Source of the DNA: a virus
DNA length: 27,357 nt
Virus genome (UHGV): UHGV-0082481
Reading direction: 5' to 3' (one strand)
The notes below the pieces were generated by a model. That model was not told the origin of the DNA. It searched no databases and saw nothing but the letters and a program-made list of their open reading frames with translations. The stretch's first letter is position 1; every line of letters begins with the position of its first letter. Made by a program: the position numbers and the translations under genes. This document shows positions 614-25,532 of this stretch, piece after piece.

Positions 614-2118
614 TATTTAGCCCTCACCAGAAAGTTAAATGCAATATTGCGCGGTCTGACAGCAACAAAATTCACACCATCACCCACAGAGTTACTGGTG
701 AAATTAAATCGTGAAAATCCTGGCTGATTTCCGGCGATGCCATCATGAAAGTTAATTGCGTGTCCCGCACCTCCGCCTATATTCCCGGCAAACTGAGAAA
801 AGTTTGTAGCTTCCTGCCAGCTTAATAATTCGCGACCACCATCTGCACCTCGCCCGTCATCCCAGATACGAATGAAATCACCGCGGGCTTCAGGTAATAC
901 CAGCGAAGGAAACACTTTCGCCAGCACAGGGTAATCAGAGGCAGAAAATTTCGCCCCGTTGAACTTCAAAAACACCATACTGGACCAGCTGTCGATTACA
1001 GTATTTGGCATTGCAGCGGACGGCCAGAAGAACGGAACGCCAATAGCTGGAGCACCTTCTCCCAAACCAAGGTATGTGAGAAGACCAGCTACATCCTTTC
1101 CACTCAAATTGGTAAGCGTATTGTCCAGCGGTTGTTTACCTGCCAGCGCATTAAGCATTGTCGTGGCAAAGTTCGGATCATTCCCCAGTGCCGCCGCCAG
1201 TTCGTTCAGTGTATCCAGTGCAGCAGGTGCAGAACCCACCATTCCTGCAATCGCCGATTTCACAAAAGCCGTAGTGGCAATCTGTGTATTGTTGACCGAC
1301 TGCGCCGCCGTGGGGGCTGTTGGCGTTCCGGTGAGTGCCGGACTCGACAACGGTGCTTTTAGTGCCAGCGCATTGTTAATGGTGGTACTGAAATTCGGAT
1401 CATTGTTAATGGCTGCGGCTATTTCTTTCAGCGTGTCCAGCGTGGCTGGCGCACCATTAATAAGGGCCGTCAGTGCCGCCTGTACAAACGCAGTGGTCGC
1501 AACCTGCGTGGTATTATTTCCCGCCGCTGGCGTTGGCGCTTTGGGGGTTCCGGTAAATGTCGGGCTGGCTTTTGGCGCGTACTGTGAATGCGGGTCCGGT
1601 GCGGCAAGATGTTTTGCCATCTGATCATCCGCGTACACCTTCAGCTCCAGTGCCTTGTCATCCACATACTTGCGGGTTGCCAGCACTACAGCAGGGTCGA
1701 TTTTCAGGGTGATATTGTCCGTGCTGCTGGTAATCAGCACCATGCGCACGGTCTGAGTGCGCCCGCTACCTTCAGCCAGTTGCGGCTTATAGCTTTCCGG
1801 GCAGTTGCCCACGGCAATCAACGCCCCGGACTCATCAAACAAGCCCACTTCACGTATCCACCAACCGCCCTCGTTTTCAGGGATCACCTGTTCGGCAATA
1901 ATCTGGCTGCTGTTCTGCGGGTCGATATAAAGCATATTCAGCGCAGCCCGGCGTTTCTCATTTACCAGTGCCGTCTGCTTTGCGTCCGGCGTTGGCAATA
2001 CTCCACCGCCATCGCCCACCGCCATATGGGTAATTTTTAGCGGCACACCGAGCGCGGCGGCGCTGGCAAGTTTCGCCGCGCCAATATCCGTCAGCAGGGT
2101 ATAAAATTTTGTGCTCAT
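613..2118 (-). CDS. H: Tail fibre protein (P2 gpH-like)
   Basis: 501-aa ORF; N-terminus MSTKFYTLLTDIGAAKLASAAALG...HMAVGDGGG matches the conserved gpH N-terminal domain; Ala/Thr/Asn-rich repetitive middle region; ATGA overlap with upstream gpI stop. Confidence 0.85.
   Translation of the reverse strand: MSTKFYTLLTDIGAAKLASAAALGVPLKITHMAVGDGGGVLPTPDAKQTALVNEKRRAALNMLYIDPQNSSQIIAEQVIPENEGGWWIREVGLFDESGALIAVGNCPESYKPQLAEGSGRTQTVRMVLITSSTDNITLKIDPAVVLATRKYVDDKALELKVYADDQMAKHLAAPDPHSQYAPKASPTFTGTPKAPTPAAGNNTTQVATTAFVQAALTALINGAPATLDTLKEIAAAINNDPNFSTTINNALALKAPLSSPALTGTPTAPTAAQSVNNTQIATTAFVKSAIAGMVGSAPAALDTLNELAAALGNDPNFATTMLNALAGKQPLDNTLTNLSGKDVAGLLTYLGLGEGAPAIGVPFFWPSAAMPNTVIDSWSSMVFLKFNGAKFSASDYPVLAKVFPSLVLPEARGDFIRIWDDGRGADGGRELLSWQEATNFSQFAGNIGGGAGHAINFHDGIAGNQPGFSRFNFTSNSVGDGVNFVAVRPRNIAFNFLVRAK
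1148..1555. repeat. Diverged tandem duplication (~200 bp units) inside the tail fibre gene
   Basis: Two adjacent DNA segments (about 1148-1335 and 1370-1555) are visibly similar and encode two copies of a ~65-aa motif (NNTTQVATTAFVQAAL...LDTLKEIAAAINNDPNF / NNTQIATTAFVKSAIA...LDTLNELAAALGNDPNF). Confidence 0.55.
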
Positions 2119-2720
2119 GGATTCACTCTCATTGTGTCAATAACATGGACCGCCCCGCCTTCATGCGCGGTGCCACCGGAAATAATCGTTTCGTTGATAT
2201 ACGGATAGATCGTGATTTCTTCGCCAAGATAGCTGGCGGCTCCCACCCAATGCGGGCCGCTGGTCTGCAGATTGATGGACATGCCGATCATGTGGCGGCT
2301 ACATGGTTTGGCATCGCTTATCAGTCGCTCAAGTTCCAGATAGGTATCTTCAGTGATGCCCTGGTCCTGCACGCCGATATCCAGGCGAAACGTGCCCGGT
2401 GTTTCTCCGGTCTGCCACCACTCAATAATGCGGATCAGGAATCCGAACGGCTCCACCACCCGCCGCACGGCACTGGTGGTCCCTTTATGCTGATGAATAT
2501 AAAAAGCATCCTTCACCACCTGGCGCTTGACGCTTTCTGTCCAGCCCTCGTCCCAGCGATCCACAGAGAACGCCCAGGCGAGATAAGGCAGGAAACTGAC
2601 CGGACAGGTTGCCGGATTCCACAAGTCACGAAGCGGCACCTGCAGATCAGAAATCCCGCTGCAGGTTTGCGCCAGTCGGCGCTCCAGTGGTGTTGAACCC
2701 GGTGGCAGCAGACTATTCAT
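2115..2720 (-). CDS. I: Baseplate protein (P2 gpI-like)
   Basis: 201-aa ORF between J and H in conserved P2 order; N-terminus MNSLLPPGSTPLERRLAQ typical of gpI; overlaps neighbours by a few bases. Confidence 0.85.
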   Translation of the reverse strand: MNSLLPPGSTPLERRLAQTCSGISDLQVPLRDLWNPATCPVSFLPYLAWAFSVDRWDEGWTESVKRQVVKDAFYIHQHKGTTSAVRRVVEPFGFLIRIIEWWQTGETPGTFRLDIGVQDQGITEDTYLELERLISDAKPCSRHMIGMSINLQTSGPHWVGAASYLGEEITIYPYINETIISGGTAHEGGAVHVIDTMRVNP

Positions 2721-3621
2721 CCGTTCCTCCGTTGGTTACGCTCCACTGCGTACATGATGCCGCCTGTGTTTTGTTCAGGACCACATCCGCCAGAGGAGAA
2801 GCCAGCTCCACACGCTGCACCCCCTCAACATGCAGGGCGGCAAAGATGGCGCTACGGCGAATATCCCGACCAAGACGCGTCTGACTGGCGATGTACTTCT
2901 GCAGGCTGGCTTTTGCCGCTGCCATTACCGGCTCTGCTTCCGGTCCAGGATAGAGAAAAATGGTGGCTTCCACGCGATACGGGATGATTTCTGCGCTGCG
3001 AACCGTAAGACGGTCAGCCACCGGGCGGACGTTCTCACTGTTCAGAGCTTTTTCCACCACGTCCAGCAGGTCTTTTTCTGCAGTTCCATCGCCTTCGCGG
3101 CTAAGGACAGTCAGCACCACCTCTGCAGGTGCCGGGCTGGTTGCACTGGCATCCGCCACCCGACCGTCGGCGCTTCGGGCATGAAATTCATAAGCTGCAG
3201 TTGGCCCCGCAACAGAAAGCCCTTCAAAGGCTGCAGGCACACGCAGGCGCAACGCTTCATCGCTTTCCATCACAGCTGCAACGGGCGGCACAGCATCATT
3301 ATCAGCAGGCGTCACCGTCAGGCGTGTCACGTTGTAGTTGGCAGCGAGCTGGTCAAGATCGCCGCCCATCGCGTAAGCCACCATCACCGCCTGCGCGGCT
3401 TCGTTAATGCGCTGACGCAGAAGCAACTCACGGTAAGCGTTCTCCTGCAACAATTTAGTGGCGGGTTCAGATTCCAGTTCCAGCGTGCGGATCACTGCTT
3501 CCTGCTCATCTTTCGGATGAAGCGCCACAAATTCTGCCTTGCGTTCGGCAAGCAGCGTCTCAAAGTCCGGCACATCCACAATCTGCGGTGCAGGCAACTG
3601 CGAAAGGTCAATCACTGCCAT
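2713..3621 (-). CDS. J: Baseplate assembly protein (P2 gpJ-like)
   Basis: Six-frame ORF 2713-3660; likely start is the internal Met (MAVIDLSQLPAPQIV...) at 3621, which matches the gpJ N-terminus; conserved W-J-I order. Confidence 0.85.
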   Translation of the reverse strand: MAVIDLSQLPAPQIVDVPDFETLLAERKAEFVALHPKDEQEAVIRTLELESEPATKLLQENAYRELLLRQRINEAAQAVMVAYAMGGDLDQLAANYNVTRLTVTPADNDAVPPVAAVMESDEALRLRVPAAFEGLSVAGPTAAYEFHARSADGRVADASATSPAPAEVVLTVLSREGDGTAEKDLLDVVEKALNSENVRPVADRLTVRSAEIIPYRVEATIFLYPGPEAEPVMAAAKASLQKYIASQTRLGRDIRRSAIFAALHVEGVQRVELASPLADVVLNKTQAASCTQWSVTNGGTDE

Positions 3622-3967
3622 TCTCTGCTCCTGTTGATACGGAAAGGGACACAGGCACACCGTTATTCCGCCGCCCGGTCAGCTCCACCACCATTGAACC
3701 GTCAAAATTGCTGTTGATGGTGATGGAATCCAGCGTCAACCGTGGCTCCCAGCGACTCAGCGCCACATACACTGCCGACATGACCTGCAGGCGTAATGCC
3801 GGATTTTGTGGCTGATCTATCAGTGCCGACAGCAGGGAACCATATTCCCGGCGGGCAATACGGCTACCCTGCGGTGTCAGCAGAATGTCCCGCACCGACT
3901 GGCGCAGATGATCAATATCAGTAATGACTTTGCCGCTGGTATTGTTCATCCCGCTATAAAGCGTCAT
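3608..3967 (-). CDS. W: Baseplate wedge protein (P2 gpW-like)
   Basis: 119-aa ORF, size and position (between V and J) as for gpW; ATGA overlap with the V stop. Confidence 0.85.
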   Translation of the reverse strand: MTLYSGMNNTSGKVITDIDHLRQSVRDILLTPQGSRIARREYGSLLSALIDQPQNPALRLQVMSAVYVALSRWEPRLTLDSITINSNFDGSMVVELTGRRNNGVPVSLSVSTGAENGSD

Positions 3968-4557
3968 ACCGGGCCTCCGGTTGTATCGCCGCCTTTCAGG
4001 ACGCCAGTATGCTGATGCGCATCAACCACGATCCCGTTAGAACTCATCGCTCCGCCGCCCTGGGTAACGCCACCATTGATCACCACTTCGCTGTTAATGC
4101 GCGTGCGGTCAGCCTCCAGTACAAACTCACTGGTTTTCATGGTGATGTTGTCAGCAGCCTCAATGACCATTGATTTGATGCCCCTGACATACCAGCGCCC
4201 GGTGGCGGGTTCGTATTCAAACCAGCCACCGTCAGGATGTTCTGTCACGCAGGCGTCCGCCGACGTCGACGGTGGTGCGAACTGATTCGAATAGATGGCG
4301 GGCAGCGCAAACGCGGTTTCCAGATTGCCGCCCATGCTCAGCACCACCACCTGCTCATCTGGCGACGGGCACCACCATGTACGGGCACCACCGGCGCGTA
4401 GCGTCAGCCAGTTAATCCAGTTGGTTTCAAGCTCGCCTACCTTCACCCGGCACAGCCATTTGTTCCGGTCCACTTCGGTCACAATGCCGGTGCGGATCAG
4501 ATTGGTGATAAGGCGCATAATTTCTGTGAGTTGTGCGTTCATGGTTGCAGTTTGCAT
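3964..4557 (-). CDS. V: Baseplate spike/hub protein (P2 gpV-like)
   Basis: 197-aa ORF, first gene of the V-W-J-I-H-G tail operon; the true start may be a downstream Met (4542 or 4518). Confidence 0.8.
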   Translation of the reverse strand: MQTATMNAQLTEIMRLITNLIRTGIVTEVDRNKWLCRVKVGELETNWINWLTLRAGGARTWWCPSPDEQVVVLSMGGNLETAFALPAIYSNQFAPPSTSADACVTEHPDGGWFEYEPATGRWYVRGIKSMVIEAADNITMKTSEFVLEADRTRINSEVVINGGVTQGGGAMSSNGIVVDAHQHTGVLKGGDTTGGPV

Positions 4558-4574
4558 GAAATCAAAAGAAAATA

Positions 4575-6443
4575 GTGATTTTCAAATTGTATGAAGGGTC
4601 TTACAATCCAATGAATTACAATGAAGAGCTAACCTCATATCTTAATTATTTAGTGGATCTTGAAAAATCCCCTAATTTCGCAGTAATGATTGACGGCGAA
4701 TGGGGAAGCGGGAAAACATGGTTTGTCCGTAAATTAATGAATGAAGAATCACTAAAAGGGAAAGTTAAGCCATTAATGATCTCATTATATGGAATAAAAT
4801 CCACCGAACAAATTGACGAAATAATTTTCAAGCAAATGCATCCCTTCCTTTCATCTAAAGGCATGTTGCTTGCTGGCACACTAACTAAGGCACTAATTAA
4901 AGGCACACTTAAGATTGATTTAAGTGATTCATTCGTTACAAGTGTAGAGGGCTCCCCAGAACTACCCAACGTAAGCATTAAAGACTTTTACTACTCACCA
5001 GAAAACACCATATTGATATTTGATGATCTTGAACGCTGCGAATTAGATTGGAATTCTATATTTGGTTATATAAATAATTTCGTTGAAGAAAAAGAATGCA
5101 AGGTTTTGATTATCGCCAATGAGAGAGAAATATTAAACCCCGCTAGAAATAAAAATCATGATGGTATTTATTTAGATGCAAAAGAAAAAGTTATAGGTAT
5201 AACTTTCAAATATCAACCTCAACATTCTCACGCCTACGAATATTTTCTAAAAAATATAACTAGCGAACTCAACACCATTCTGAACATAAAAAATATTGAG
5301 AGCTTACTCACTCTTTCAGAGTGTAATAACATTAGATTAATTGAAAGGCAAATTTCTTTTTTTGAAAGAATATTCAAAATATTACCAGCACAGTTTCAGC
5401 AAAATTCAGATTTGACACTCAGATTATATCAATTACATTTTATACTCTATTTTGAATCTAATAAAATAAAACGAACCGTTTCTGACTTGTTAACATATAA
5501 AATAGATGATGATAATAAATACACATCCAATTTAATTGAAAAATATGGTACAACTTATTTGTCAAATTTAATCTTAGACGAGGATACCTGGATCGATATA
5601 ATTGACAATCAGAAAATCAATCAAGAAAAAATAATATCTGAATTAATAACATTCGTCAGTGTTTCTAATAAAACAATTGAGCCATGGACACAACTTTGGA
5701 ATTATGATCGATTAAAATACACAGAATTTGAGGAAAATTACAATTCAACACTTCATACGCTTATTAATTTTGAAATATTGAACGAGCATGTTCTTAAGCA
5801 TATTTACGGATTATTACTTCATTTATCCAGAGAACATATAAAACCCATCAACGAACACTATTTAACAAACTTAGCCCACTCTGCTGTTGATATTTTAGCA
5901 GAAAAAGGAATGATACAAACTAGTTATGAAATTTTTGATGAAGACATTAAGGATGAGCGATGGAGAGGATTAACTTTTCATTGCAAAGAAACTAGGGAAT
6001 TCAAGGAGCTTGTTAATTACATAGAACAAAAGAAAAATGTATTAATTGCATATCAACTTAGCCAAGACGCTCAAAAGATATTCAAATTAATACAGTCCGG
6101 AAATCATGAATATTACGCACATCTAAATTTCAACAACAAAGATATTTATTCATTTCACGACAAACCAGTTCTTTATTTTGGTGATGCTGAACAACTAACA
6201 AAAATACTGATAGACTCAACCGAGATGCATTTCTTTGGCTATGCTATAAAAAACCGATACAACAACACCCCTTATCTAAAAGAGCTTTCTGCAGAGCGTT
6301 TTTTCCACCGCGAGCTAATTAGAAAGCTAATTGAAAAGAAAACTCAAATAAACTCAAATATATTATCATTACAAATCGATGAGCTCATAAATGATTGTTT
6401 AACTCCCGCAATAGATAAATTAAAGCAAAGCATTGAAAATTAA
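4575..6443 (+). CDS. KAP-family P-loop NTPase (accessory/moron gene)
   Basis: 622-aa ORF (GTG at 4575; alternative ATG at 4611), strongly AT-rich against GC-rich flanks; Walker A GEWGSGKT (GxWGxGKT) and Walker B-like ILIFDDLER are the KAP NTPase signatures; sits in the S-V intergenic slot, opposite in orientation to the flanking structural operons. Confidence 0.75.
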   Translation: MIFKLYEGSYNPMNYNEELTSYLNYLVDLEKSPNFAVMIDGEWGSGKTWFVRKLMNEESLKGKVKPLMISLYGIKSTEQIDEIIFKQMHPFLSSKGMLLAGTLTKALIKGTLKIDLSDSFVTSVEGSPELPNVSIKDFYYSPENTILIFDDLERCELDWNSIFGYINNFVEEKECKVLIIANEREILNPARNKNHDGIYLDAKEKVIGITFKYQPQHSHAYEYFLKNITSELNTILNIKNIESLLTLSECNNIRLIERQISFFERIFKILPAQFQQNSDLTLRLYQLHFILYFESNKIKRTVSDLLTYKIDDDNKYTSNLIEKYGTTYLSNLILDEDTWIDIIDNQKINQEKIISELITFVSVSNKTIEPWTQLWNYDRLKYTEFEENYNSTLHTLINFEILNEHVLKHIYGLLLHLSREHIKPINEHYLTNLAHSAVDILAEKGMIQTSYEIFDEDIKDERWRGLTFHCKETREFKELVNYIEQKKNVLIAYQLSQDAQKIFKLIQSGNHEYYAHLNFNNKDIYSFHDKPVLYFGDAEQLTKILIDSTEMHFFGYAIKNRYNNTPYLKELSAERFFHRELIRKLIEKKTQINSNILSLQIDELINDCLTPAIDKLKQSIEN

Positions 6444-6449
6444 AATAAA

Positions 6450-6468
6450 GCCCAGATCGCCACTGGGC
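6450..6468 (-). terminator. Hairpin terminator downstream of gpS (end of the O-to-S late operon)
   Basis: GCCCAG-atcgcca-CTGGGC stem-loop followed on the minus strand by a T-rich run (plus-strand ttaaaataaa at 6440-6449). Confidence 0.4.
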
Positions 6469-6483
6469 AACAATATACGCAAG

Positions 6484-6927
6484 TTATGAAATACAATATA
6501 TCAAAAATCTCTCAACTTCTTTTTTAATAGGCTCATTAATACCTAGCAAGCATCGTCTGGAATAATGAACTATCGGCCCACGTTTACTGACACGATCACG
6601 CAGTCCATAATGGTGAACACGGGCAATGCGCTGCACCTTACCTTCAAACTGCACGCTGGCAGAATCGGCGCTGGCGGCAGTTTTCAGGTATTTTGTGGTG
6701 CGCAGCTTCGCAAACATCTGACGTTTGATGCGGCCTTTTTTACTGCGCGCTGTTACCCGTCGCGGCTCATAACTACTGCCATCTGGATTGCGCTGCATCC
6801 TGATGTTTTGCTGCTGTGTCCGGCGCAGCTCCTGTGCCAGTTGGCGCATCATGCGACTTCTTGCAGCTGGCTCCAGATTCGCCAGTAAGGCACTCAGCCA
6901 GTCGTCCACTTTCTGCAATTCAGCCAC
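6484..6927 (-). CDS. S: Tail completion protein (P2 gpS-like)
   Basis: 147-aa ORF, conserved position after R; overlaps the R stop by 8 nt; the last ~18 codons are AT-rich unlike the rest of the gene. Confidence 0.85.
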   Translation of the reverse strand: MAELQKVDDWLSALLANLEPAARSRMMRQLAQELRRTQQQNIRMQRNPDGSSYEPRRVTARSKKGRIKRQMFAKLRTTKYLKTAASADSASVQFEGKVQRIARVHHYGLRDRVSKRGPIVHYSRRCLLGINEPIKKEVERFLIYCIS

Positions 6928-14197: not shown

Positions 14198-15228
14198 TGG
14201 GAAAGAGTAAGAAGAACCGCGCTGCGGCGACGAAACAGATCCAGCTTAAAAGTCAAACTACAGCCGAAGCATTCAGCTTCGGCGATCCCGTTCCTGTTCT
14301 GGACCGCCGAGAACTGCTGGATTATGTGGAATGCGTACAGATGGACCGTTGGTATGAGCCGCCCGTCAGCTTTGACGGACTGGCGCGCACCTTCCGCGCC
14401 GCCGTGCATCACAGTTCCCCGATTGCAGTAAAGTGCAACATTCTGACCAGTACCTATATCCCTCATCCGCTGCTCAGCCAGCAGGCTTTTTCGCGTTTTG
14501 TGCAGGACTATCTGGTATTTGGTAACGCCTACCTGGAGAAACGCACGAACCGATTCGGTGAAGTTATCGCTCTTGAGCCTGCGCTTGCAAAATACACCCG
14601 ACGCGGATTAGACCTGGATACCTACTGGTTTATGCAATACGGTATGACAACCCAGCCGTATCAGTTCACGAAAGGCAGCATTTTTCATCTGATGGAACCG
14701 GATATTAATCAGGAGATCTACGGCCTGCCCGGCTATCTTTCTGCCATCCCATCCGCTTTGCTCAACGAGTCCGCCACGCTGTTCCGCCGCAAGTATTACA
14801 TTAACGGCAGTCATGCAGGCTTCATCATGTACATGACCGATGCGGCGCAGAACCAGGAGGATGTGAACAACCTCCGCAACGCGATGAAAAGCGCCAAAGG
14901 TCCAGGCAATTTCCGCAACCTGTTTATGTACTCACCTAATGGCAAAAAGGATGGGCTTCAGATCATTCCTCTGTCAGAAGTTGCGGCGAAGGATGAGTTT
15001 CTGAATATCAAAAATGTCAGCCGCGATGACATGATGGCTGCGCACCGCGTACCACCGCAAATGATGGGGATTATACCTAATAATGTTGGAGGATTTGGGG
15101 ATGTGGAAAAGGCTAGCTGTGTGTTTGTGAGGAATGAGCTAATACCATTACAGGAAAGAATAAAAGGATTAAATAGTTGGTCTAATGAGAATATAATCCA
15201 ATTCAAACCGTATACACTTGAATTCTAA
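14194..15228 (+). CDS. Q: Portal protein (P2 gpQ-like)
   Basis: 344-aa ORF, same length as P2 gpQ, immediately after P. Confidence 0.9.
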   Translation: MMGKSKKNRAAATKQIQLKSQTTAEAFSFGDPVPVLDRRELLDYVECVQMDRWYEPPVSFDGLARTFRAAVHHSSPIAVKCNILTSTYIPHPLLSQQAFSRFVQDYLVFGNAYLEKRTNRFGEVIALEPALAKYTRRGLDLDTYWFMQYGMTTQPYQFTKGSIFHLMEPDINQEIYGLPGYLSAIPSALLNESATLFRRKYYINGSHAGFIMYMTDAAQNQEDVNNLRNAMKSAKGPGNFRNLFMYSPNGKKDGLQIIPLSEVAAKDEFLNIKNVSRDDMMAAHRVPPQMMGIIPNNVGGFGDVEKASCVFVRNELIPLQERIKGLNSWSNENIIQFKPYTLEF

Positions 15229-15231
15229 GAT

Positions 15232-15257
15232 AATGGGCGCCTACATAGGCGCCATTA
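15232..15257. terminator. Hairpin between convergent Q and the 422-aa ATPase gene
   Basis: Inverted repeat aatgggcgcc-tacata-ggcgccatta (self-complementary GGCGCC arms) in the 48-bp convergent intergenic space, A/T-rich flanks. Confidence 0.4.
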
Positions 15258-15276
15258 TCTATAATAAAGACATGAA

Positions 15277-16545
15277 TTAATTTGGCAACTCCAAATCATC
15301 CTTTAGATCTTTGATATCTTGATGTTGCAACCATATTAGGAAGCCTTTATCAACAACATTCAGTTTCCTATTTGTTTGGTCATAATCCAAAATAATAGGC
15401 ATTATATTTTTCTTTATTTGCAAAGACGCCGTTGATTGTAACGACTGAGTAACATTACCCAGGTTTAACTTCTCCCCTCTTGGATGTACACTTTGTAATA
15501 TTGCCCTTATATCTTTAAATTTCAAACCTAATTCAAGTTCACTAATGGTTGATGAAAGGACAGGATATAAAATCCATTTATGCATTTGAAGTTCAGTATC
15601 TTGAAATCCATCTGAAAAATTAATAAGGAAAGAATTGTAACGAGCCGATTGGTCATTAACAATTTTTGCAATGATATCCTTTCCATCCAAACCAGCTCCA
15701 ATAGTTCTTTTTGTTTGCTGAGTCTCTGATATTCCGCATTCAATACACGCACGCCTACATGCTTCTTGCACTAAATAAATACTATTGAGACAGTGTGTTA
15801 CTACATCTGCTTTGAAAGTTGGATCAAAATCAATGTTAAGGAGTAAACCTCCTTTATCAATTGCCATCTCCAGTTCAGAATCTTGCCATTTGTCTGCGTT
15901 AACAGAAATAATCCTGCCAGTTAAGTCACCATTGTAAACAATGAGCCGATTATCTTCTAGCCAAACTCCAACAATTACAAAAATAATGCTTGATGTTTCA
16001 TGAAAGGCTTTTAATGCGATCGAAAAATCTCTTTGAGTTTCGAAAGGCATATAATGAAAATCCTCAAGAACGATAATCTTCTTGAAATTTATAGATTTTA
16101 AAGCCGCTATAACATCATTAACATCATCAACATCAATTTCTAAAGGCGCGGTTACTTGTTCATGAGATTTCGTATCTTCGATCTCGCCTCCGGCACTCGC
16201 CACAAAACCCAAAATAGAAGTTTTTATTGATGCGATTATTTTATTTTTCCCCGTAATACCTTTCTTGGTAGACTGAGTTATTTCGAATCCAGCTCTTTTT
16301 AAAATACTTGCATTCAATTCAGATACATCAGAACGATTCGAACACTGCACCAAAATATAATCATCAGAATTAATACAGTGTTTTCTTACGCAAGTCTTAC
16401 CCTGCTTTGAACTGCCGTAAATAACAATATGTTTCTTTGCTTGTAATTCCTGTTTAAGTTTGAAATCAACATCAGGTCTTTCAATGTAATTAAGTGGCAA
16501 ATCTCTTGAGAGCCCAAAGATATCATTCGTATCAAAAATTTCCAT
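15277..16545 (-). CDS. P-loop ATPase of unknown function (accessory/moron gene)
   Basis: 422-aa ORF, strongly AT-rich; Walker A GSSKQGKT and Walker B-like KIIVLEDFH; convergent with Q, lying between the portal gene and the candidate cos/accessory region. Confidence 0.7.
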   Translation of the reverse strand: MEIFDTNDIFGLSRDLPLNYIERPDVDFKLKQELQAKKHIVIYGSSKQGKTCVRKHCINSDDYILVQCSNRSDVSELNASILKRAGFEITQSTKKGITGKNKIIASIKTSILGFVASAGGEIEDTKSHEQVTAPLEIDVDDVNDVIAALKSINFKKIIVLEDFHYMPFETQRDFSIALKAFHETSSIIFVIVGVWLEDNRLIVYNGDLTGRIISVNADKWQDSELEMAIDKGGLLLNIDFDPTFKADVVTHCLNSIYLVQEACRRACIECGISETQQTKRTIGAGLDGKDIIAKIVNDQSARYNSFLINFSDGFQDTELQMHKWILYPVLSSTISELELGLKFKDIRAILQSVHPRGEKLNLGNVTQSLQSTASLQIKKNIMPIILDYDQTNRKLNVVDKGFLIWLQHQDIKDLKDDLELPN

Positions 16546-16660
16546 TTTAATATTCTCAACGTTCAGAATTTGCTACTAAACATATAATGCTCCGCGTTTT
16601 TTTGCAACTTGTCTCGAATATTTATATGAGATTGTTCTCATATAAATTAACCAGCGCGCG

Positions 16661-16679
16661 CTCGTATCCCCGCCACGCC
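16661..16679 (-). other. Candidate cohesive-end (cos) core
   Basis: Minus strand reads GGCGTGGCGGGGATACGAG; the first 13 nt match the 19-nt cohesive end I recall for phage 186 (GGCGTGGCGGGGAAAGCAT; P2 differs by one base in that stretch). Recalled from memory, not verified. Confidence 0.3.
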
Positions 16680-16728
16680 TGCCCGCTTTATGTAGTGGTT
16701 TTCATGCAGGTGCATGATCTACGCAAAA

Positions 16729-16748
16729 GCCCGCCAGTTCTGGCGGGC
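16729..16748 (-). terminator. GC-rich hairpin with T-run on the minus strand
   Basis: GCCCGCCAG-ttc-TGGCGGGC perfect 9-bp stem preceded on the plus strand by AAAA (TTTT after the stem on the minus strand). Confidence 0.4.
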
Positions 16749-17021
16749 CTTAGCAAAAACGATCCTCAAACGATCATGCAATCTCATGCAGCATAGACAT
16801 GCACAGACGAGTAAAGCGAATCGGACTTTACGCAAGGTGAACTCCTCAGCGGGTATAATCAGTATGTCGGAAAATCTCTAAAAATAAATAATTCGGTTAA
16901 CAGGTATGCTTACAAAAGCATATATTTGATTAAAAATCATGTAAGGGGGAGGATCTCAAACTGAATCGCCACGGGTTTTACAAATTTCGATAGTCTCTCT
17001 AACGTTTCGGATGAGGTCAAA

Positions 17022-17447
17022 ATGAAAAGCTTTTACGTATTAATTTTAATTCTGGTTGCAAGCTTTGTTAGCGTCCCAGTTCAGGCGGTAACAGCTAAAA
17101 ACTATGAGAAAGGAACTAAAGCTCAACAGAAATCAATATCTTACCTTTCATGTGCATTCTATGGCAGTAGCACACAATTAGATCCTAGCTACACGGGGCA
17201 AGTACCTACAGCCGATATCAAGATATTACAGAAAGCAGCTTACCACGCTTACAACGATGCGCTCTCATACTTTGGCTATGAGGAACCAGATCACGAACAA
17301 CGCATAATTGATTATGCTGAATTTGTGGCGTCGCAAGAAGCTGTGTTATGGGATAAGCCGGGAATGAATGGAAAGCAGGTAACACTAATTGCTCGTTCTC
17401 TCTACAATGAGAGTAACTGTAACTTGTTACTGGACTCAATTAAGTAG
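17022..17447 (+). CDS. Small secreted protein of unknown function (accessory gene)
   Basis: 141-aa ORF with a typical signal peptide (MKSFYVLILILVASFVSVPVQA), GAGG about 8 nt upstream of the ATG, AT-rich; opposite in orientation to the flanking phage genes. Confidence 0.6.
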   Translation: MKSFYVLILILVASFVSVPVQAVTAKNYEKGTKAQQKSISYLSCAFYGSSTQLDPSYTGQVPTADIKILQKAAYHAYNDALSYFGYEEPDHEQRIIDYAEFVASQEAVLWDKPGMNGKQVTLIARSLYNESNCNLLLDSIK

Positions 17448-17606
17448 GAAAAAGATGGTATTTTGCCGGTAGTTTCAACCTTAATCTCCGAACCTGTCGC
17501 AGAACGGGCGTTCACTCATCAAATAAACGCCACACCTAACGCCTCACTGTACTCGTTGTTCAACCTTGCTGACGCCAGAACCAAGTTCAGACGCCAGCAA
17601 CTTTTC

Positions 17607-17840
17607 TTAATGCAGCCAGCTGTCGTCTTCCCACACCTTCTGCATAATTTTCATCACTTGTTTTCTTTCTTCGTCCAGTTGCAGTCCGGTCAGTTCCACA
17701 CCGTTAGAGCTACCTTTGCGGATGCGAATTACCGTTTTGGGATACAGGGGGCGCAGATTGCGGTAAAGCTCTGATTCAAGGGCGTCCAGGGTAGACTGGC
17801 TAATCTTCTGCTCTTTATCGATCATTATTTCAATGCGCAT
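17607..17840 (-). CDS. DinI-family protein (186 Tum C-terminal-like; possible SOS antirepressor component)
   Basis: ORF 17607-17912; start at the internal Met (17840) gives a 77-aa protein MRIEIMIDKEQ...KVWEDDSWLH that parallels E. coli DinI (MRIEVTIAK...ETWESADDWFVSE); GAGGTG RBS upstream; downstream of a LexA box. Confidence 0.7.
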   Translation of the reverse strand: MRIEIMIDKEQKISQSTLDALESELYRNLRPLYPKTVIRIRKGSSNGVELTGLQLDEERKQVMKIMQKVWEDDSWLH

Positions 17841-23597: not shown

Positions 23598-24542
23598 ATG
23601 TCAACTCAAAAATTCACATTTCGCCATATGGATGACGATATGAAAGCCGTTGTCATACAAAATCGTGGTGGTCAGAAAGTAATCGAACGGATACTCATGG
23701 CTTATGGCTTCAAGTCACGCCAAGCATTCTGTAACCATCTAGGTATTTCCCAAAGCACGATGGCTAACAGATATGCCCGCGATACATTTCCTGCAGATTG
23801 GATTGTTATCTGCTCACTGGAAACAGGAGCATCAATTAAATGGCTAGCATTTGGTTCAGATGATGACGAACAAATGCCATCCCCTTCACCAGAACAGCAT
23901 GTTGAAACACACTCCGAAGATGGTTCTTATCATGATGTTCACTATAAACAACCAAAGTTCGACAATGAAAACATCATTGATTATTCTCGGGGTGGCAAGG
24001 AAGCAATAGAGCGAATTGTTAGGGCTTACGGTTATAAGACTCGCCAAGCCTTAGCTGATCACTTAGGTATTTCAAAAAGCACATTAGCCACAAGATATAT
24101 GCGTGATGTTTTTCCTTCAGACTGGATAATTAAGTGCGCTCTCGAAACGGGTACTTCACTAATGTGGCTAACTACTGGTAAAGGCCCAAAGTTTGACGAT
24201 GCAAGAAATGATGTAATTGCTATTACTCACAAAAAAATTACTGACGGGAATCTATTTGATTCAAATTTCTATATGCTTGATAAAGCGTTACTACCAGACT
24301 CAATCCAATTACCATTGATTGTTAGCACCGAAAAAAAAACCTACCTATGTAATCAATCATTCGATGAAATTACAGATGGTAAATGGATTGTTAAAATAGA
24401 AGGGAAAGTGAGCATTCGAACCCTAACTAGAATACCTGTAGGAAGATTAAAAATTTCAGACAATGATTTATCATTTGAATGTAAAATTTCAGATATTGAT
24501 GTTATTGCAAAATGCAAATTTATTCTGATAGAAGAATTATAA
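23598..24542 (+). CDS. cI: Immunity repressor, 186 CI-type, with tandemly duplicated N-terminal DNA-binding domain
   Basis: 314-aa ORF divergent from apl/cII; two copies of a CI-type HTH module (IERILMAYGFKSRQAFCNHLGISQSTMANRYARDTFPADWIVICSLETGASIKWL and IERIVRAYGYKTRQALADHLGISKSTLATRYMRDVFPSDWIIKCALETGTSLMWL) plus a ~120-aa C-terminal domain; AT-rich. Confidence 0.75.
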   Translation: MSTQKFTFRHMDDDMKAVVIQNRGGQKVIERILMAYGFKSRQAFCNHLGISQSTMANRYARDTFPADWIVICSLETGASIKWLAFGSDDDEQMPSPSPEQHVETHSEDGSYHDVHYKQPKFDNENIIDYSRGGKEAIERIVRAYGYKTRQALADHLGISKSTLATRYMRDVFPSDWIIKCALETGTSLMWLTTGKGPKFDDARNDVIAITHKKITDGNLFDSNFYMLDKALLPDSIQLPLIVSTEKKTYLCNQSFDEITDGKWIVKIEGKVSIRTLTRIPVGRLKISDNDLSFECKISDIDVIAKCKFILIEEL

Positions 24543-24554
24543 AAGGATATTGGA

Positions 24555-25532
24555 ATGAGTGGTTCTGATTATAAAAGTAATAGTGAAAAATACACGTCTA
24601 GAAGTATTAAATTAGGAGAATTAAAATCACATTTAACTAATGACACCTATAATACTTTGAAAACCCTATTGGATTCTCTAGCGTTTGATGAATTCGATAT
24701 GCTATTTGATGCTTACAGTCGAAATTTTTCTAAAAAAGAATATAAGTATGCCCCCTTCATGTCCGACCATACATCATTGCAAAACAGTGAAGTAGATAAG
24801 TACCTTTTAAAAATTGAGGAATTAGAACATAAACTACGTGAGTTTCAAAAAAGCCATAACGCTCATTCAGAGCAAATGGAAAAGTTGAAAATGGAATTAT
24901 CAAATGAAATAGAAAGTAAAGAAAAAATAGTATCACAGCTAAAAGACCAACACATCAAAAACAAAGAACTACAGTTTAAAAACCAAGAACTTTCAAGCAA
25001 AATTCAACAAAAGAAAATTGACGAAAAGGTTCCTGAATATGTGCAAGGCGTCAAAGCAAAACTACAGCAGGACGATAAAGACTTCACTACAATGTCTTAC
25101 AATTGGGCGATAGCCGGAATACTATTTTCATTATTATCTATAAGCGCCGCCTTTTTAACATTTTTTTATAAAATCGATATAAAAGATACTACCACCATTG
25201 AACTTTTTTATTATTTCACTCGGGGCTTACTTGGGGTTGCATTACTTTCTTGGCTTTCTTATTTTTGTTTAAACAATTCAAAAAAATACACACATGAAGC
25301 AATCATAAGAAAAGACAGACAACATGCTCTAATGTTTGGTGAGGTCTTCTTACAAATTTATGGTTCAACTGCAACAAAACAAGATGCTATTGATGTGTTT
25401 AAAGATTGGAATATGTCAGCTAATTCTGCATTCGCAGATAAAACGCAGCCACCTCCAAATTTATTTAACATTTTAGGCTCACTTGTAGATAAAAAATCAG
25501 CCGCAAATGATGACATCATTACCAAAAAGTGA
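24555..25532 (+). CDS. Membrane protein of unknown function, co-oriented with repressor and integrase (candidate lysogenic-conversion/exclusion gene)
   Basis: 325-aa ORF 13 nt after the cI stop with AAGGA RBS; strongly AT-rich; charged helical region (residues ~80-170), two hydrophobic segments (WAIAGILFSLLSISAAFLTFFY and GLLGVALLSWLSYFCL), then a ~90-aa C-terminal domain. Confidence 0.65.
   Translation: MSGSDYKSNSEKYTSRSIKLGELKSHLTNDTYNTLKTLLDSLAFDEFDMLFDAYSRNFSKKEYKYAPFMSDHTSLQNSEVDKYLLKIEELEHKLREFQKSHNAHSEQMEKLKMELSNEIESKEKIVSQLKDQHIKNKELQFKNQELSSKIQQKKIDEKVPEYVQGVKAKLQQDDKDFTTMSYNWAIAGILFSLLSISAAFLTFFYKIDIKDTTTIELFYYFTRGLLGVALLSWLSYFCLNNSKKYTHEAIIRKDRQHALMFGEVFLQIYGSTATKQDAIDVFKDWNMSANSAFADKTQPPPNLFNILGSLVDKKSAANDDIITKK

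Follow-up and report, generated by a model that had tools for sequence, protein, structure and literature searches.

A KAP-family P-loop NTPase gene in the S-V interval of a P2-like Escherichia coli prophage: a candidate single-gene phage defence

What is the function of an AT-rich gene that sits between two conserved structural operons of a P2-like prophage and runs opposite to both? The question is raised by UHGV virus genome UHGV-0082481, a stretch of 27,357 nucleotides (in what follows, the window), in which a gene encoding a KAP-family P-loop NTPase (4611..6443, plus strand) is bordered on the left by the gene for baseplate assembly protein V (3964..4542, minus strand) and on the right by that for the tail completion (virion morphogenesis) protein S (6484..6927, minus strand). 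A first-pass annotation, made from the letters of the DNA alone, had proposed that the gene is of no use to the virion and is a candidate single-gene defence system. Our analysis shows that the gene is prophage cargo and not a virion gene, and it favours, with a probability of roughly 0.6, the reading that the product acts in anti-phage defence of the lysogen as a single-gene NTPase sensor-switch. Our confidence in any particular antiviral output step is much lower.

The program-made list of open reading frames (ORFs) gives the gene as a 622-residue ORF from a GTG codon (4575..6443, plus strand), and RefSeq as a protein of 610 residues (WP_001108703.1, 'P-loop NTPase fold protein') that runs from an ATG at 4611 to the stop at 6443 on the same strand. 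The GTG at 4575 was dropped in favour of the ATG on the grounds of the RefSeq call, the N-termini of the family and the conserved residues N4 and Y14; in the family alignment the conserved residues begin at position 4, which fits the ATG. The DNA of the avian pathogenic E. coli (APEC) strain IMT5155 is 100% identical to the window, and the host element is there a complete P2-like (Peduoviridae) prophage of ~35 kb that lies between ybjL and rcdA. With a GC content of 0.308 (0.278 at third codon positions, GC3) against 0.55-0.59 for the neighbouring V/W/J and S/R genes, and antiparallel to both V and S, the gene matches its earlier description as an AT-rich ORF of ~1.9 kb in reverse orientation to its neighbours. 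An antisense ORF of 110 residues (4646-4978) lies within the gene; there is no evidence for it being real.

The encoded protein is a KAP NTPase. The Pfam model KAP_NTPase (PF07693) matches residues 19-240 of the 622-residue form (E=3e-16, 60 bits against a cut-off of 20), and the same family is the precomputed assignment of all 120 listed homologues. In addition to a score above the Pfam threshold, the protein has both Walker motifs and the C-terminal alpha-helical extension: in an alignment of 65 homologues, G29, W31, G32, G34 and K35 of the Walker A motif GEWGSGKT (residues 29-36; 4695..4718, plus strand) are invariant, as are F137, D138, D139, E141 and R142 of the Walker B motif ILIFDDLER (residues 134-142; 5010..5036, plus strand), which is of the KAP-type DDL(D/E)R form, and likewise N240 and R242. 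The initial recognition of a KAP NTPase from GEWGSGKT and IFDDLER was therefore not spurious. At a finer level, the PADLOC models (PADLOC-DB v2.0.0) of the family PDC-S49 match over virtually their whole length, i.e. PDLC05029 with E=1e-134 (residues 14-618 on profile positions 3-617 of 619), PDLC05031 with E=6e-133 and PDLC05030 with E=1e-74. By these profile matches the protein is a full-length member of PDC-S49, a single-gene PADLOC family that is itself a computational candidate; PDC stands for phage defence candidate. The PHROG family phrog_4740 (E=2e-60) is of unknown function, and none of the NCBIfam profiles matched.

A database search recovered 542 relatives. The best 120 of these are nearly all 600-670 residues long, align for the most part near full length at 26-39% identity, and stem from Enterobacteria, Vibrio, Pseudomonas, many Cyanobacteria, Flavobacterium and others. 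The family is thus spread over Proteobacteria, Cyanobacteria and Bacteroidota, where it occurs in variable, toxin-antitoxin-rich or integron-like regions and not in one niche, and across this phylum-spanning family the catalytic motifs and C-terminal residues are invariant.

An AlphaFold2 model of the full protein, built with the family alignment, has a mean predicted local distance difference test score (pLDDT) of 85.3 and comprises an N-terminal P-loop alpha/beta domain, a low-confidence insert and an all-alpha remainder. The all-alpha region (residues 205-610; 5223..6440, plus strand) is family-specific and presumably forms a sensor or scaffold; modelled alone it reaches a pLDDT of 91.8, and a structure search with this model matched no enzymatic fold. 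A phmmer search with residues 241-610 against 1.84 billion representatives returned 331 proteins, nearly all of 600-650 residues and matching at the same position, and the short matches look like truncated gene calls. A C-terminal domain that is common to other architectures is ruled out by these results, and by the matches the region is private to the family and always fused to the NTPase. Of the earlier statement that about 450 C-terminal residues belong to no assignable family, the lack of a family match stands, but the length is ~370-400 residues. The NTPase module resembles, according to Foldseek, the switch ATPases of ORC/Cdc6, Apaf-1, RFC, RdrA and the NLRs.

At the position where classical KAPs have a transmembrane (TM) hairpin, between Walker A and Walker B, the protein has a Lys/Gly-rich insert (residues 77-125; 4839..4985, plus strand). 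The pLDDT of residues 86-122 is 31-54; the block 81-100 is among the best conserved of the protein (0.69), and P78, K83, K97 and D103 are present at 90% or more. An amphipathic membrane-surface helix in the insert was considered and is unsupported (hydrophobic moment at most 0.32). No TM segment was found in the protein, the best 19-residue Kyte-Doolittle mean being 0.98, and a TM KAP like Tmn or EF_KAP is ruled out by this hydropathy. Since PifA also lacks TM helices, the absence of such a segment does not exclude KAP membership, and on its predicted properties the protein is placed among the soluble KAPs.

The S-V interval in which the gene resides is a true cargo slot. In most related phage records the gap between S and V consists of a 68-bp spacer only, as in Escherichia phage 500465-1, Klebsiella phage 4LV2017, Fels-2 and SopEPhi, so that S and V abut in many phages and the gene is, as had been supposed, needless for the virion. 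Elsewhere the slot holds AriA plus AriB (PARIS; vB_EcoM-813R9) or an FRG-domain protein (PADLOC PDC-S15; SEN8), both confirmed by profile, a hypothetical protein of 176 residues (Cartapus), or an ORF of 502 residues without Pfam or PADLOC match (Kp4865-2, 1362-2873, minus strand). The Kp4865-2 cargo shares the strand of S and V, unlike the other cargos. Among complete E. coli genomes we found 1,061 records with V/S flanks, of which 60 were sampled at even spacing and 58 had both flanks; 28 of these 58 slots contain no cargo. In the other 30 at least 14 different cargos were counted: DUF6216 is present in 6, a Cartapus-like hypothetical in 4, AAA plus DUF4435 in 3 and GmrSD in 2, and the others include SIR2, AIPR, FRG, PcfJ and several hypotheticals. 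Conserved flanks around a variable content that includes known defence systems, i.e. the hallmark of a cargo hotspot, are therefore what is found here, in agreement with the first-pass annotation. Many of the fillings are unannotated hypotheticals of ~0.6-1.7 kb, one being a PcfJ-domain protein, and these are candidates for further phage-borne systems.

The record of P2 itself has the 'nonessential' orf30 in the identical position and orientation, and the KAP gene is like orf30 also in its relation to the activator site of the late promoter P_V (see below); the earlier equation of the two slots thus agrees with the P2 record. Published P2 hotspots are the gpA-portal interval (old/tin), Z/fun and the cI/integrase region (10.1101/2024.10.15.618418; PMC9122126), and PMC13586616 mentions one more, 'downstream of GpL', among the tail genes. 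None of these three papers names the S-V slot as a defence hotspot. The turnover of cargo at S-V resembles that of the published hotspots (PMC9122126; 10.1101/2024.10.15.618418), yet the slot is, unlike old/tin and Z/fun, not singled out in these papers, though about half of the slots are filled in our sample.

The borders of the cassette can be drawn by comparison with the empty slot. Homology to phage 500465-1 ends at 4542, at the V start codon, and resumes at 6586 inside S, which delimits an exchangeable AT-rich module of 2,043 bp (4543..6585, GC 0.31) made up of the V-KAP spacer, the KAP gene, the KAP-S spacer and the end of S. The 3' 102 nucleotides of S (6484-6585, ~34 codons) have a GC content of 0.32 against 0.55 for the rest of S, every slot variant has its own S C-terminal tail of ~20-33 residues, and S thus receives its C-terminal tail from the cargo cassette. 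An AT-rich insert had been recognised from the start, but the foreign DNA extends further than the gene and takes in the last ~34 codons of S. Conservation of the V-KAP spacer (81%, counted by hand) is slightly above that of the coding sequence (~70%), a difference too small to build on.

All cassettes have their left joint marked by a TGT-N12-ACA dyad (4588..4605), at which an Ogr-type activator would act on the late promoter P_V (the P2 record labels the same element 'activator binding site; activation of pV promoter'); the form TTGT-N12-ACAA lies at constant distance from the V ATG in 8 of the 8 slot variants compared. According to the P2 annotation, V transcription begins with the very first base of the coding sequence, so that the V mRNA would be leaderless. 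On the right, a GC-rich hairpin followed by a T-run (6450..6468, minus strand) forms a terminator-like end of the S operon; it is the sole such site in 4300-6700, and with an average of 1.6 sites in shuffled sequences it is weak when taken alone. Since the cassette is flanked by the terminal end of one late operon and by the promoter that drives the next, it interrupts neither, and the initial description of two interrupted operons has to be given up. Apart from AT-rich chance matches no direct or inverted repeats flank the module, nor does a tRNA, and Rfam shows no non-coding RNA in or near it. A transposon-like or integrase-mediated insertion is ruled out by the absent repeats and tRNA; the lack of flanking repeats, tRNAs and Rfam families fits exchange by recombination and not transposition.

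The KAP ATG follows the dyad by 5 nucleotides, and this position is the one argument in favour of an accessory role in the assembly of P2-type virions or in late gene expression. Such a role is effectively refuted, as many infectious relatives and about half of the sampled prophages have nothing in the slot and others have unrelated genes there, as no full-length homologue is found in 50,697 phage records, as a viral structure library gives generic AAA+/clamp-loader matches only, and as the homologous position of P2 is annotated as nonessential.

Is the gene itself maintained? The exact protein is encoded on 242 E. coli contigs, and its 90% cluster also takes in Salmonella. Complete E. coli genomes contribute 10 records of the gene, none of which is flagged as a pseudogene, and the ORF is intact in each. 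At 61% and 60% identity, two diverged alleles are found in the S-V slot, both in the same orientation. The 61% allele belongs to an intact P2-like prophage; the 60% allele (618 residues) belongs to a decayed remnant of ~10 kb that is likewise inserted at ybjL, and in three independent samples of this remnant the KAP gene is whole while V and S are truncated. The remnant further retains the cI repressor, the integrase and a GIY-YIG_2 gene near ogr, and has lost the head, lysis, replication and most tail genes. Between the window allele and the 61% allele the ratio of nonsynonymous to synonymous substitution rates (dN/dS) is ~0.13 over the first 600 nucleotides, with dS near saturation, which points to purifying selection on the KAP gene. 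It is therefore very unlikely that the module is inert hitch-hiking DNA, transcriptionally silent and tolerated between two late operons: a GC content of 0.31 is typical of xenogeneic DNA and no convincing promoter is in evidence, but neither the intact and widely distributed gene, nor the dN/dS between alleles that share the slot, nor the invariant catalytic and C-terminal residues are what this explanation predicts.

The genome context of the homologues was compared in the P2 prophages, pseudomonad islands, Flavobacterium, Vibrio, Methylobacter and Dolichospermum, and no conserved partner gene was found across these; from its neighbourhoods PDC-S49 appears to be a single-gene unit without an obligatory partner. 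In the classical gpA-gpQ hotspot of a different P2-like prophage, that of E. coli KE47 (NZ_CP141089.1, 8947-12407), there is a PDC-S49 paralogue of 647 residues (28% identical, PADLOC E=3e-156). A RES-domain gene of 384 residues follows it, and the two may form a two-gene arrangement or be independent cargos. (NZ_CP141089.1 is a 4.9-Mb chromosome that is filed as 'plasmid' in PLSDB.) A pseudomonad homologue is located in an island that splits comM and contains a small and a large serine recombinase, another distant homologue adjoins HigBA, a methyltransferase and a resolvase, and others are found among BrnTA and dynamin-like GTPases or among Panacea/PIN genes. In the case of V. cholerae, the homologue is flanked by small DUF645 and DUF3709 genes. 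Such flanks are typical of superintegron cassettes and suggest that the family also travels as an integron cassette. The full-length match to PDC-S49 and the lack of a conserved partner are consistent, as bioinformatic evidence, with the candidate single-gene defence that had been proposed.

The same contexts bear on two other functions. Toxin-antitoxin genes are common beside the distant homologues, the intact gene in the decayed remnant also suits an addictive element, PifA-type KAP proteins are plasmid-borne, and P2-like phages and P4 satellites are in constant conflict, both with hotspot cargo (PMC9122126, PMC13586616). The gene might on these grounds be a weapon against other mobile elements (P4-like satellites, incoming plasmids) or an addiction-type module that makes it costly for the host to lose the prophage or let it decay. 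We consider this unlikely, as no antitoxin-like or partner gene is conserved beside the KAP gene, the PDC-S49 family shows no specific tie to satellites, and its sister cargos at S-V belong for the most part to classical anti-phage systems. A lysogenic-conversion 'moron' unrelated to conflict, for instance an NTPase that modulates host physiology or niche fitness, has similarly poor odds. It would agree with the presence of APEC and animal isolates among the hosts (several carriers being avian or animal), with the signalling role of eukaryotic KAP proteins (PMC13001434), and with the fact that phage cargo slots hold non-defence genes too and that many S-V fillings are uncharacterised. It is difficult to reconcile with a family that occurs in variable regions of several phyla instead of one niche, that PADLOC lists as a defence candidate, and that has a paralogue in a canonical defence hotspot.

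How does the protein relate to KAP NTPases with established defence functions? KAP NTPases fused to unknown regions have been found to be anti-phage, with both Walker B and the C-terminal region being required (PMC13552941, 2026); according to its authors, EF_KAP of Enterococcus does not work via abortive infection (PMC13552941). The window protein is like the EF_KAP-type defences in having an N-terminal KAP NTPase and a C-terminal part of ~320-400 residues without known domain. Of the two TM helices in EF_KAP, one lies within the NTPase domain; the window protein has no TM helix, and the EF_KAP-type defences, which were compared by description only, come from Firmicutes hosts. The small serine recombinase in the island of the pseudomonad homologue is the marker used in PMC13552941. 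A second system compared by description is Reve, a single-gene ATPase with a KAP P-loop that is found in P4-satellite hotspots and protects E. coli against several phage families (PMC13586616, NAR 2026). Both are single-gene KAP-type ATPases in hotspots of the P2/P4 system of Enterobacteria, Reve in P4 and the window gene in P2. Reve was selected from loci without DefenseFinder or PADLOC match (PMC13586616) and is therefore probably not PDC-S49.

PifA of the F plasmid (741 residues) is a TM-less KAP protein that excludes T7 (PMC13001434). It shares with the window protein the Walker A motif GxWGSGKT, the Walker B motif DDL(D/E)R, which in PifA reads DDLDR, the single polypeptide and the location on a mobile element, but the likeness goes no further than the P-loop motifs (BLASTP E=0.006 for 25 residues around Walker A; hhalign 43 columns at 79% probability). 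PifA matches its own PADLOC model (E=3e-290) as well as QatA and PDC-S20, and not PDC-S49, and pifA follows the repressor gene pifC, for which there is no counterpart beside the window gene. Homology to PifA or QatA was rejected, as neither PADLOC model matches the window protein at E<=1.

In the case of Tmn, T2 RIIB is sensed via solenoid arms and ATP turnover is raised (PMC13001434), and QatA is an oligomeric (heptameric or octameric) DNA-binding KAP NTPase (PMC13279940). Both are like the window protein in that a P-loop NTPase is combined with a helical or solenoid C-terminal part. Tmn is nevertheless a membrane protein that forms decamers and whose P-loop domain contains two TM helices, and no tmn (Tmn/YobI) model is among the PADLOC matches at E<=1; QatA acts in a four-gene operon, whereas the window gene has V and S as neighbours and no QatB, QatC or QatD. 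With respect to the STAND proteins (Avs/NLR), the NACHT model stays below its threshold of 26.7 bits (14.9 bits, E=0.024), an effector domain is absent, and the Foldseek likeness to Apaf-1 and NLRs is weak (E ~6e-4, template-modelling score 0.23) and common to ORC, Cdc6 and RFC. STAND proteins are a possible working analogy, i.e. of a sensor combined with an NTP switch.

The mechanism that we propose is drawn from analogy with Tmn, the STAND/Avs proteins and the Enterococcus KAP defences; the defence function as such, the sensor role of the C-terminal region, the oligomerisation and the output step are inferred. The trigger, a protein or nucleic acid made by the phage, would be recognised by the family-specific all-alpha C-terminal part, upon which the AAA+/STAND-like NTPase module would switch state by nucleoside triphosphate (NTP) binding and hydrolysis, probably accompanied by oligomerisation. 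No nuclease, protease, TIR, SIR2 or membrane domain was found in the protein, and the output would therefore have to come from the NTPase-driven assembly itself, for instance by sequestering or remodelling a phage complex, by runaway NTP turnover, or by action of the Lys/Gly-rich insert.

Several points weigh against a defence function of this kind. A literature search retrieved no paper on PDC-S49 or WP_001108703.1, and the family is a candidate only. The KAP defences that have been validated are of different families: EF_KAP and Tmn are membrane proteins and the window protein is without TM segment, PifA has just the P-loop motifs in common with it, and the models of PifA, QatA and other PADLOC systems are unmatched. 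There is no recognisable effector domain, which makes any output step speculative. Cargo slots, as noted, also hold non-defence genes, and many of the S-V fillings are unannotated hypotheticals. Finally, no convincing promoter was found for the KAP gene, the promoter-like sites being as frequent as expected from shuffled sequences; the lone such site near the start (-10 at 4602-4607) would put the start of transcription after the ATG.

A more far-reaching reading joins the protein and the slot, in that PDC-S49 would be a mechanistically new form of single-protein immunity and the S-V (orf30) interval an as yet unnamed major defence hotspot of P2. We regard this combination as possible but rather doubtful. 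In this case the soluble KAPs would have swapped the membrane hairpin for the conserved Lys/Gly-rich loop and would have no enzymatic effector; defence would proceed via NTP-driven assembly, remodelling or sequestration, or via nucleic-acid binding by the loop, and not via killing by a toxin domain; and the cassettes would be swapped at a fixed joint, from the P_V activator site to the 3' end of S.

The same prophage carries further stretches of deviating composition. In its gpA-gpQ hotspot an AT-rich island (~15000-17400, GC 0.36-0.40) contains a gene for a protein of 421 residues (15277-16545, minus strand) that matches PADLOC PDC-S59 (E=6e-72), adjoined by a gene for a DUF4145 protein (~16950-17690, plus strand). 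In view of the PDC-S59 match, the prophage has at least two candidate defence cargos. A third stretch of low GC content (24000-25200, 0.31-0.34) takes in the cI repressor gene, a small hypothetical one and the beginning of the integrase gene, and is the region where published work puts another P2 hotspot. The window starts (1-720, GC 0.43-0.45; locus L001, 14055-16145) inside an invertible tail-fibre region, in which the tail-fibre assembly genes point in opposite directions and a tail-fibre gene is partial; a Hin/Cin-like recombinase is located just outside the window.

What is new in these findings is less than the first-pass annotation implied, even though its identification of a candidate stands: PDC-S49 is already catalogued in a defence database, the GenBank label of the protein already is KAP, and the KAP class has experimental precedent (2026). 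New may be the soluble, effector-less architecture with a conserved basic insert, as well as the quantitative view of S-V as a much-used site for cargo and defence genes, in which the cassettes have a fixed joint. Should the gene give no protection, it would be one more uncharacterised prophage moron. If it is a working defence, it would be an E. coli-native and genetically tractable member of the KAP NTPase defences. Being soluble and effector-less, and present as three diverged alleles in one slot, it would then be convenient for finding the trigger by means of escape mutants, and would suit structural work on how a KAP NTPase can stop a phage without a toxin domain. The S-V interval is in any case worth mining beside the old/tin and Z/fun hotspots, its unannotated fillings being candidates for new systems.

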